Below, one piece after another: positions 35,812 to 36,049 of a stretch of DNA of 64,000 nucleotides (its first letter is position 1; every line of letters starts with the position of its first letter). Both the position numbers and the translations under genes were made by a program. The notes under the pieces are model-generated. The model saw only the letters and a program-made list of their open reading frames with translations, did not search any database and had not been told where the DNA came from. Location of the stretch: assembly GCF_055900595.2 (NCBI RefSeq), contig NZ_CM148325.1; one strand, 5' to 3'.

Positions 35812-35813
35812 AG

Positions 35814-35864
35814 TTAGTTCCCCGTCCTGAATCTTGAGAAACAGAATTTTGTGCTGTTATTCAT
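35814..35864 (-). CDS. ilvX: small protein IlvX (16 aa) between attenuator and ilvG
   Basis: ORF atgaataacagcacaaaattctgtttctcaagattcaggacggggaactaa = [16 protein letters not shown], ending 2 nt before the ilvG ATG; matches my recollection of the K-12 small-protein annotation. Confidence 0.45.
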
Positions 35865-35894
35865 TGTCTGCTCCTCAGTTATGTTTTTAAGGTC

Positions 35895-35929
35895 AAAAAA
35901 AACCCCCGGACCTTTCGGTGCGGGGGTCT
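35895..35929 (-). terminator. ilvGMEDA attenuator terminator
   Basis: On the minus strand: GC hairpin gacccccgcaccgaaaggtccgggggt followed by an 8-U run, directly downstream of ilvL. Confidence 0.85.
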
Positions 35930-35950
35930 TAGTTCGTTAAGGCTTGATCT

Positions 35951-36049
35951 CTAAGCCTTTCCTCGTCCAAGTGCAGCCCCGCACGGTGGGATAATAATCA
36001 CCACCACGCTAATCACGACCAGGCTAATCACTCGTAGAAGGGCTGTCAT
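35951..36049 (-). CDS. ilvL: ilvGMEDA leader peptide
   Basis: 32-codon ORF MTALLRVISLVVISVVVIIIPPCGAALGRGKA rich in Leu/Val/Ile regulatory codons. Confidence 0.9.
   Translation of the reverse strand: MTALLRVISLVVISVVVIIIPPCGAALGRGKA

Follow-up and report, generated by a model that had tools for sequence, protein, structure and literature searches.

Why a 16-codon open reading frame (ORF) should lie between the attenuator of the ilv operon and ilvG, its stop codon almost touching the ilvG start codon, is the question raised by this locus. It was studied in a 64,000-nt stretch of DNA, the whole of which is called the window here. A 551-nt query around the ilv leader found a match in 5425 of 5426 complete Escherichia coli genomes, nine of them at 100%. 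The source of the window is E. coli, and the locus is the leader that regulates the ilvLXGMEDA operon of this species, in its canonical form. In strains identical to the window over the 551-nt query, RefSeq lists three genes under the match: ilvL as "ilv operon leader peptide", ilvX as "peptide IlvX" (WP_001387183.1) and ilvG as "acetolactate synthase 2 catalytic subunit". In K-12 MG1655 the label of ilvL (b3766) is "ilvXGMEDA operon leader peptide", and that of the small ORF (b4669) is "uncharacterized protein IlvX". A preliminary description of this DNA had placed ilvL, an attenuator hairpin with a U-run and a 16-codon ORF in this order ahead of ilvG. The leader peptide gene and the terminator were found on the minus strand as described, and the ORF, which does end 2 nt before the ilvG ATG, proved to be a gene that already has a name, ilvX. 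The features are collected in Table 1. The attenuator, the annotated small gene and the Rfam family were all known before, and the catalogue of known elements gains nothing from them.

Table 1. Features of the ilv leader region, by position in the window
Feature	Position	Strand	Detail	Basis
Rfam RF02744 match, ilv 5' leader	35831..36120	-		covariance-model score
ilvL, 32-codon leader peptide	35951..36049	-	ATG at 36049, stop 35953..35951	ORF list and RefSeq annotation
Alternative-pairing segments of attenuator	35977..36007	-		MFE folds
Intrinsic terminator of attenuator	35895..35930	-	stem 35926..35903, GAAA loop, U8 35902..35895	
ilvX Shine-Dalgarno GAGGAG	35871..35876	-	6 nt before ATG	sequence
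ilvX, 16 codons and TAA	35814..35864	-	ATG 35864, TAA 35816..35814	ORF list, WP_001387183.1, b4669
15-bp palindromic core, ilvX codons 3-8, candidate Lrp operator	35842..35856	.	CAGCACAAAATTCTG minus strand, CAGAATTTTGTGCTG plus strand	
ilvG SD-like GGGG	35820..35823	-	-12..-9 from ilvG ATG, inside ilvX codons 14-15	sequence
ilvX stop and spacer	35812..35816	-	TAA 35816..35814, CT 35813..35812	sequence
ilvG, intact 548-codon acetolactate synthase II large subunit	34165..35811	-		ORF list and RefSeq

The E. coli ilvL attenuator was reportedly described by Lawther and Hatfield in 1980 and by Nargang et al. in 1980, and three of its hallmarks are found here: an amino-acid-rich leader ORF, an intrinsic terminator before the first structural gene and, in silico, an antiterminator mutually exclusive with that terminator. 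The only promoter-like match on the minus strand (36161..36134) was rejected as the promoter, as it clashes with a leader length that we take to be about 185 nt. The ilvL product, MTALLRVISLVVISVVVIIIPPCGAALGRGKA, has 15 Ile, Val or Leu residues among its 32 aa (6 Val, 5 Ile and 4 Leu) and contains the run VVISVVVIII, and the same figure of 15 branched-chain residues in 32 aa has been published for the ilvGMEDA leader (PMC6123439). Folded alone, the terminator hairpin (35930..35899) reaches -21.6 kcal/mol, and the whole leader has a more stable fold than all 200 shuffles (z = -3.67). In the MFE fold, GUGGUGGUG (36007..35999) pairs with CCCACCGUG (35990..35982). The 5' arm of the antiterminator, GUGCGGGG (35984..35977), is predicted to form a duplex of -17.7 kcal/mol with CCCCGCAC (35925..35918), a segment common to the antiterminator and the 5' arm of the terminator. 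The antiterminator appears in silico in the MFE structure of a transcript ended at the terminator loop. It was seen only in this truncated-transcript fold; in equilibrium folding with a ribosome footprint masked, the terminator was retained every time. A simple terminator pattern scan missed the attenuator because the terminator stem is bulged, and its plus-strand match was spurious.

Multivalent attenuation at ilvL is established. In the classical scheme, the rate of ilvL translation would choose between the antiterminator and the terminator hairpin with its U8 tract, and in the cited literature the response of read-through to the supply of charged tRNA(Ile/Val/Leu) is given as established in vivo for K-12. 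Recurrent laboratory-evolution mutations annotated as "ilvL/ilvX intergenic" +47/+48 (PMC4166923), with the same annotation also in a second evolution study (preprint 10.1101/659706), map to the 3' arm of the terminator, a location consistent with a working attenuator. Transcript 3' ends in the ilv 5' UTR have likewise been ascribed to the known attenuator (preprint 10.1101/2020.07.18.207399).

The small gene begins 30 nt past the end of the U-run and is nucleotide-identical to K-12 b4669, which is also located between ilvL and ilvG. "Peptide IlvX" is annotated in all 47 genomes among the matches listed, out of the 5425 E. coli matches, and ilvX is likewise annotated in each of 30 genomes sampled evenly along the ranking of a 91-nt query. 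The operon has been written ilvLXGMEDA in an earlier study, which places ilvX before ilvG, gives its product as a small peptide and credits Hemm et al. (2008, 2010) for it (PMC9299463); the same study employed an ilvX translational fusion. The Shine-Dalgarno (SD) sequence of ilvX is kept as GAGGAGCAG across the Enterobacteriaceae, and its predicted duplex with the anti-SD (-8.4 kcal/mol) is strong, consistent with translation of ilvX.

Comparison among species brought out what has been kept at this position. The ilvG loci of 80 species were taken and their upstream regions compared, with 49 Enterobacterales as the main set; these species are related, and the counts that follow are not counts of independent events. 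In 38 of the 49 Enterobacterales an ATG or GTG stands at -53 and a stop codon at -5 relative to the ilvG ATG, with no indels between them, and ilvX starts 29 to 40 nt after the U-run. Frame 0, that of ilvX, is open in 46 of the 49 species, frames 1 and 2 having stops in 43 and 36, respectively; a shuffled sequence of the same composition keeps the frame open with a chance of 0.35. Substitutions of the start and stop codons are to predicted functional equivalents: the start is GTG in three Citrobacter, and Pseudescherichia ends the ORF with TGA, Shimwellia with TAG. Cedecea sulfonylureivorans has lost the TAA, and its ORF extends to a TGA that forms an ATGA overlap with ilvG. Because the sequence is found in 5425 of 5426 E. 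coli genomes and the geometry is kept in 38 of 49 Enterobacterales, the 16-codon arrangement is, on this comparative evidence, not a chance ORF.

Retention of the ORF is not universal. The ilvX start codon has been lost in eight species (four Photorhabdus, Pluralibacter gergoviae, Edwardsiella, Budvicia and Arsenophonus), which suggests that the ORF is dispensable in some lineages. Outside the Enterobacterales, approximately 12 of 15 Vibrionaceae loci combine a leader peptide and a nearly identical terminator with a short ORF (MKC... or MC...), which follows the attenuator, is unrelated to ilvX and finishes in an ATGA overlap with ilvG. The overall pattern of geometry is consistent with selection that favors translation of a short ORF as far as the start of ilvG.

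The encoded peptide gives a different impression. Codons 2-20 of ilvG show the classic coding pattern in the same species, with column entropies of 0.09, 0.11 and 1.16 at codon positions 1, 2 and 3; the corresponding values over all ilvX codons are 0.62, 0.87 and 0.81. Three-base periodicity of conservation, sought in ilvX among the 49 Enterobacterales, was absent, the second positions varying at least as much as the third. Codons 9-13 (1.03, 1.43 and 1.31) are about as variable as the third positions of ilvG. Residue 7 is Phe, Ser or Cys depending on the species, and its codon scarcely changes at the third base. The two variants looked at within E. coli, N2S and S10P, are both nonsynonymous. 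Lys6, Cys8 and Gly15 are widely kept, and the conserved residues fall on two nucleotide elements, a 15-bp core in codons 3-8 and the ilvG SD in codons 14-15. These patterns suggest that selection keeps the position and translation of ilvX, in the form of its SD, start, open frame, 16-codon length and stop site, and not the sequence of the peptide.

The 15-bp core has the cross-species consensus CAGCA[C/T]AAAAT[T/C/G]CTG (35856..35842) and forms a palindrome (AG.A ... T.CT; CAG-N9-CTG) around an A/T-rich center. Its entropy at the three codon positions (0.07, 0.51 and 0.37) is below that of ilvG synonymous sites. It is retained in species without the ilvX start codon, namely four Photorhabdus, Edwardsiella and Pluralibacter gergoviae, and this retention points to constraint at the nucleotide level; in Budvicia, which also lacks the start codon, the core persists in degraded form. 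Pairing with the sRNA GcvB was considered as a cause of this conservation and rejected, given a mean z of -0.97 over 44 species and a published fusion that was unresponsive to GcvB (both described below).

A protein that might read the core at the DNA level is Lrp, for which the E. coli consensus is yAGhAwATTwTdCTr (PMC5554404). The E. coli core matches this consensus at 13 of 15 positions (2 mismatches, plus strand), which is at chance frequency, with 85 such matches in the window against 73.5 expected. Because the E. coli match by itself is at chance level, the Lrp reading rests on the cross-species pattern. Mismatches number 0-1 in 24 of the 49 species and no more than two in 39, and the core is the best or joint best match to the consensus within a 480-nt region in 47 of 49. 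The positions of the core that vary across species coincide with the degenerate positions h, w and d of the Lrp consensus, Rahnella and Cedecea sulfonylureivorans match it at 15 of 15 positions, and Shimwellia, Pantoea sp. IMH and Edwardsiella match the 13-mer form, AGAATwwwATTCT, at 13 of 13. In E. coli the candidate site would be located inside an ORF, approximately 230 nt beyond the presumed start of transcription. Repression of ilvGMEDA by Lrp through binding in the leader region is described in reviews that cite Rhee et al. (1996). The core is best read as a putative DNA operator for Lrp, a known ilv repressor, and this reading is regarded as a good lead.

At the downstream end of ilvX, its TAA ends 2 nt short of the ilvG ATG (35811), and the ilvX frame passes through the ilvG SD. 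Farther upstream, 140 nt separate the ilvL stop from the ilvG ATG, and 86 nt separate the U-run from the same ATG. The preliminary description had also taken ilvG to be intact here, unlike in K-12, and this was correct: the 548 codons are uninterrupted, whereas K-12 ilvG lacks 2 nt at ORF positions 977-978, the frameshift that makes it a pseudogene. Among the matches listed, ilvG is annotated as a functional catalytic subunit in every non-K-12 genome. The predicted anti-SD duplex of ilvG in E. coli is -7.0 kcal/mol versus -8.4 kcal/mol for ilvX, the cross-species means are -6.3 and -7.3 kcal/mol, respectively, and the CGGGGA that contains the ilvG SD is at least 90% conserved. The idea that the ilvG start is by itself weak or occluded was not borne out, as its SD is near that of ilvX in strength and no conserved occluding structure was found.

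The search for such structure covered the aligned region. RNAalifold returned essentially no consensus structure (-1.6 kcal/mol). In the MFE structure of E. coli, a hairpin of UGAGGAGCAGA with UCUGUUUCUCA would hide the ilvX SD; across the alignment 74.0% of cells were paired versus 72.5% in shuffled sequence, 20 of 500 shuffles were as high as the observed pairing, and the hairpin was rejected. Two helices over the ilvG SD were also discarded: UUUCUC/GGGGAA was without convincing covariation, and YCUGY/RCGGG had one covarying pair, with 14-43 of 500 shuffles reaching the observed values. Because no structure occluding the ilvG start is supported, one classic rationale for coupling is removed. 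With respect to GcvB, its R1 region is predicted to pair with AGCAGACAAUGAAUAACAGCACAAAA in the start region of ilvX at -21.2 kcal/mol in E. coli, and data sets of GcvB RNA-RNA interactions show an enrichment of ilvX (PMC9299463). Over the 44 species the pairing was not consistently strong by mean z, an unrestricted duplexfold run on the region as a whole gave no information, and GcvB did not affect the ilvX translational fusion (PMC9299463).

How might a short ORF with these properties act? In the mechanism proposed here, ilvX would reload ribosomes onto read-through transcripts just past the attenuator and deliver them to the ilvG start, so that the 86-nt stretch between the U-run and the ilvG ATG would be kept translated. 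Initiation at ilvG could then be helped by termination-reinitiation or by the initiation region being kept open, and the Lrp-like palindrome in codons 3-8 may provide DNA-level control within the same 53 nt. Translational coupling between ilvX and ilvG is a reasonable inference from the arrangement, to which the conserved geometry and the equivalent start and stop codons lend indirect support, and in the literature mentioning ilvX no experiment was found on the dependence of ilvG translation on ilvX. Coupling need not be obligatory, because the SD of ilvG itself is comparable in predicted strength; any coupling that exists would probably be modulatory. A ribosome that terminates 2 nt upstream could instead occlude fresh initiation at ilvG or compete with it.

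From the cross-species comparison, ilvX is taken with moderate confidence to be a positional upstream ORF. The account as a whole, comprising a canonical attenuator leader, ilvX as a positional upstream ORF and an Lrp-like operator, is assigned a probability of roughly 0.55. A more ambitious version is put forward tentatively, as a possibility of lesser weight: that ilvX is not a functional peptide gene and would set the number of ribosomes at ilvG after read-through, with an intragenic Lrp operator, such that attenuation, Lrp repression and coupling converge on 53 nt, an arrangement that is conserved in Enterobacterales and to which Vibrionaceae have an unrelated analogue.

Other explanations have to be weighed against the positional reading, and two of them turn on what exactly has been conserved. 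It is quite improbable that IlvX is a functional 16-aa peptide acting in trans on an AHAS subunit or some other protein, with its adjacency to ilvG reflecting mere co-regulation. The gene does carry a protein annotation, both in K-12 and from PGAP, a small peptide is reported (PMC9299463) and three residues are widely kept; however, the palindrome and the ilvG SD account for the conserved residues without peptide selection. The remainder of the peptide behaves poorly for a selected product, with second codon positions at least as variable as the third, residue 7 changing among Phe, Ser and Cys despite a near-invariant third base, residues 9-13 about as variable as the third codon positions of ilvG and both E. 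coli variants nonsynonymous. The two nucleotide elements may also be turned into an argument that the ORF itself is incidental, its conservation being that of overlapping non-coding elements (an Lrp or other operator and the ilvG ribosome binding site) and its translation a by-product. The palindromic core does outlive the ilvX start codon in some species, the 3' end of ilvX is the SD and initiation region of ilvG and would be conserved regardless, and ilvG has its own SD. This explanation is nevertheless judged unlikely in view of the strong SD and start at a fixed distance in 38 species, the changes from ATG to GTG and from TAA to TGA or TAG that preserve function, the lack of indels over 48 nt even though five codons vary about as freely as ilvG third positions, a frame open in 46 of 49 species where approximately 35% would be expected, and the analogous ORF in Vibrionaceae.

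Two further explanations concern the transcript. Selection on position and not on peptide fits equally well with the suggestion that translation of ilvX mainly protects the read-through transcript, its ribosomes shielding a C-rich, G-poor stretch from Rho-dependent termination or RNase. The long gap between the ilvL stop and ilvG, the location of ilvX immediately after the U-run and its C/A/U-rich body are all in keeping with such a role, which we hold to be doubtful: it leaves unexplained why the stop should fall exactly 2 nt before the ilvG ATG, or overlap it, in two orders, and the 3' ends in the 5' UTR were ascribed to the known attenuator (preprint 10.1101/2020.07.18.207399). An RNA switch, in which the pyrimidine tract UCUGUUUCUC in ilvX pairs with the ilvX or ilvG SD, or the start region of ilvX is bound by GcvB, with control over translation of ilvX and ilvG as the result, would draw on the E. 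coli SD hairpin, on the predicted GcvB duplex and on the enrichment of ilvX in the GcvB data sets. It is very improbable, since the consensus fold is negligible, the SD hairpin is scarcely above its shuffled level, the two ilvG-SD helices are without convincing covariation, and GcvB pairing is neither consistent across species nor of effect on the ilvX fusion.

The positional reading bears on a gene product that is still labeled an "uncharacterized protein", for which the comparative pattern favors a role as a regulatory upstream ORF over a function of the peptide. If coupling is true, it would tune the level of valine-resistant AHAS II in strains with an intact ilvG, and this is of relevance to branched-chain amino-acid engineering, where ilvXGMED cassettes have already been moved as a unit (PMC13392391). 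The coupling idea is sensible but incremental. The combination of a positional upstream ORF and an Lrp operator embedded in it would, if true, be of moderate interest to workers on small proteins and on amino-acid regulation.

Among known systems, the ilv leader of K-12 is the closest: it has an identical leader peptide and the same terminator and spacing, and its genes likewise stand in the order yifB<>ilvL-ilvX-ilvG-ilvM. The 91 nt sampled downstream of the terminator differ from K-12 by a single base upstream of the ilvX SD (T for C) and are otherwise equal, and ilvG is intact here where K-12 carries its 2-nt deletion. The leader also gives a full-length match to Rfam RF02744 (Rev39_5p_UTR), a 5' UTR element described in soft-rot Enterobacteriaceae; the score of 158.8 bits exceeds the gathering score of 88, E is 8e-50, and the model is covered from position 1 to position 300 of 300. 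The match takes in ilvL with the region upstream of it, the attenuator and two thirds of ilvX, counted from the ilvX start, and it stops at 35831, short of the ilvG SD; the family is filed in Rfam as a cis-regulatory RNA, and neither of the two ORFs is named there. For the junction itself, the nearest comparison lies within the same operon, in ilvG-ilvM. The ilvG stop overlaps the ilvM ATG (ATGA at 34168..34165), and ilvX and ilvG likewise nearly abut. The upstream partner of ilvG-ilvM is an enzyme subunit, unlike that of ilvX-ilvG, which is a 16-codon ORF without a conserved peptide; in both, as in coupled pairs of this kind, the SD of the downstream gene lies inside the upstream ORF.

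Among Enterobacterales with an altered ilvX, the start codon of this small ORF has been lost in Photorhabdus (loci L026, L029, L034 and L037), Pluralibacter gergoviae (L015), Edwardsiella (L067) and Budvicia (L046). In the first three of these, the palindromic core AGAAYAAAATYYTG, a candidate Lrp operator, is retained at an unchanged distance from ilvG even though ilvX has no start; in Budvicia it persists only as a degraded remnant. The ilvG initiation region of Photorhabdus is remodelled as well (GGGGATATGAAAAATG). Cedecea sulfonylureivorans (L017), the core of which matches the Lrp 15-mer perfectly, has GAA in place of the ilvX TAA, and the resulting 19-codon ORF, MKCFSIICCLCGSEAGKKL, extends to a TGA that overlaps the ilvG ATG. 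This arrangement is an alternative geometry in which the ORF still ends at the ilvG start.

Further downstream, the ilvG stop and ilvM start codons overlap in ATGA, a classic coupling arrangement, here between the genes of the two AHAS II subunits. The ilvG allele of the window strain is intact, while K-12 MG1655 lacks two nucleotides, and the resulting frameshift makes K-12 ilvG a pseudogene. The divergent gene upstream of the ilv promoter region, yifB, encodes a Mg chelatase-like AAA ATPase.

Features of the ilv region and of the compared loci
Feature	Position	Strand	Remark
yifB, 516-aa ORF	window 36372..37922	+	annotation in matching genomes
IHF-like sequence AGATCAAGCCTTAA	window 35937..35950	-	directly 3' of ilvL stop codon
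Mapped position of evolved 'ilvL/ilvX intergenic' mutations	window 35903..35904	-	GGGGG 3' arm, attenuator terminator
C/A-rich ilvX start region GCAGACAAUGAAUAACAGCACAAAA	window 35847..35871	-	predicted GcvB pairing
Two nt missing from K-12 MG1655 ilvG	window 34834..34835	-	ilvG ORF positions 977-978
ilvG stop/ilvM start overlap, ATGA	window 34165..34168	-	
C. sulfonylureivorans variant ilvX	-56..+4 relative to ilvG ATG		L017
Vibrionaceae short-ORF region	about -80..+4 relative to ilvG ATG		Vibrio and Photobacterium loci

Within the attenuator segment, AGATCAAGCCTTAA resembles the IHF consensus, WATCAANNNNTTR. The ChIP-qPCR primers 'ilvG-U/ilvG-L', employed for a known IHF site (PMC8407004), flank exactly the attenuator segment that contains it. 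Laboratory evolution of K-12 at 42 degrees C yielded mutations given as 'ilvL/ilvX intergenic +47/+48 / -39' (PMC4166923), and MES-buffered lines likewise acquired convergent mutations in the ilvL-ilvX intergenic region; presumably, these changes relieve attenuation of the operon.

For the 25-nt ilvX start region, a duplex of -23.6 kcal/mol with GcvB is predicted, in which the partner is the G/U-rich R1 region of this sRNA. Such pairing would explain why ilvX was found in GcvB RNA-RNA interaction data despite the fact that an ilvX fusion was not repressed (PMC9299463).

Outside the Enterobacterales, the Vibrionaceae loci concerned (L066, L068, L071, L073, L074, L077, L078, L080 and L081, where locus position 1201 marks the ilvG ATG) carry a leader peptide upstream of ilvG and a terminator, AAACCCCCGCACTGAAAAGTCCGGGGGTTTTTTT, nearly identical to that of E. 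coli. They also possess a short ORF, beginning MKC... or MC..., with a TGA that overlaps the ilvG ATG and a small inverted repeat, GCACA-N3-TGTGC, around its start codon. The peptide encoded by this Vibrio and Photobacterium ORF bears no similarity to IlvX.
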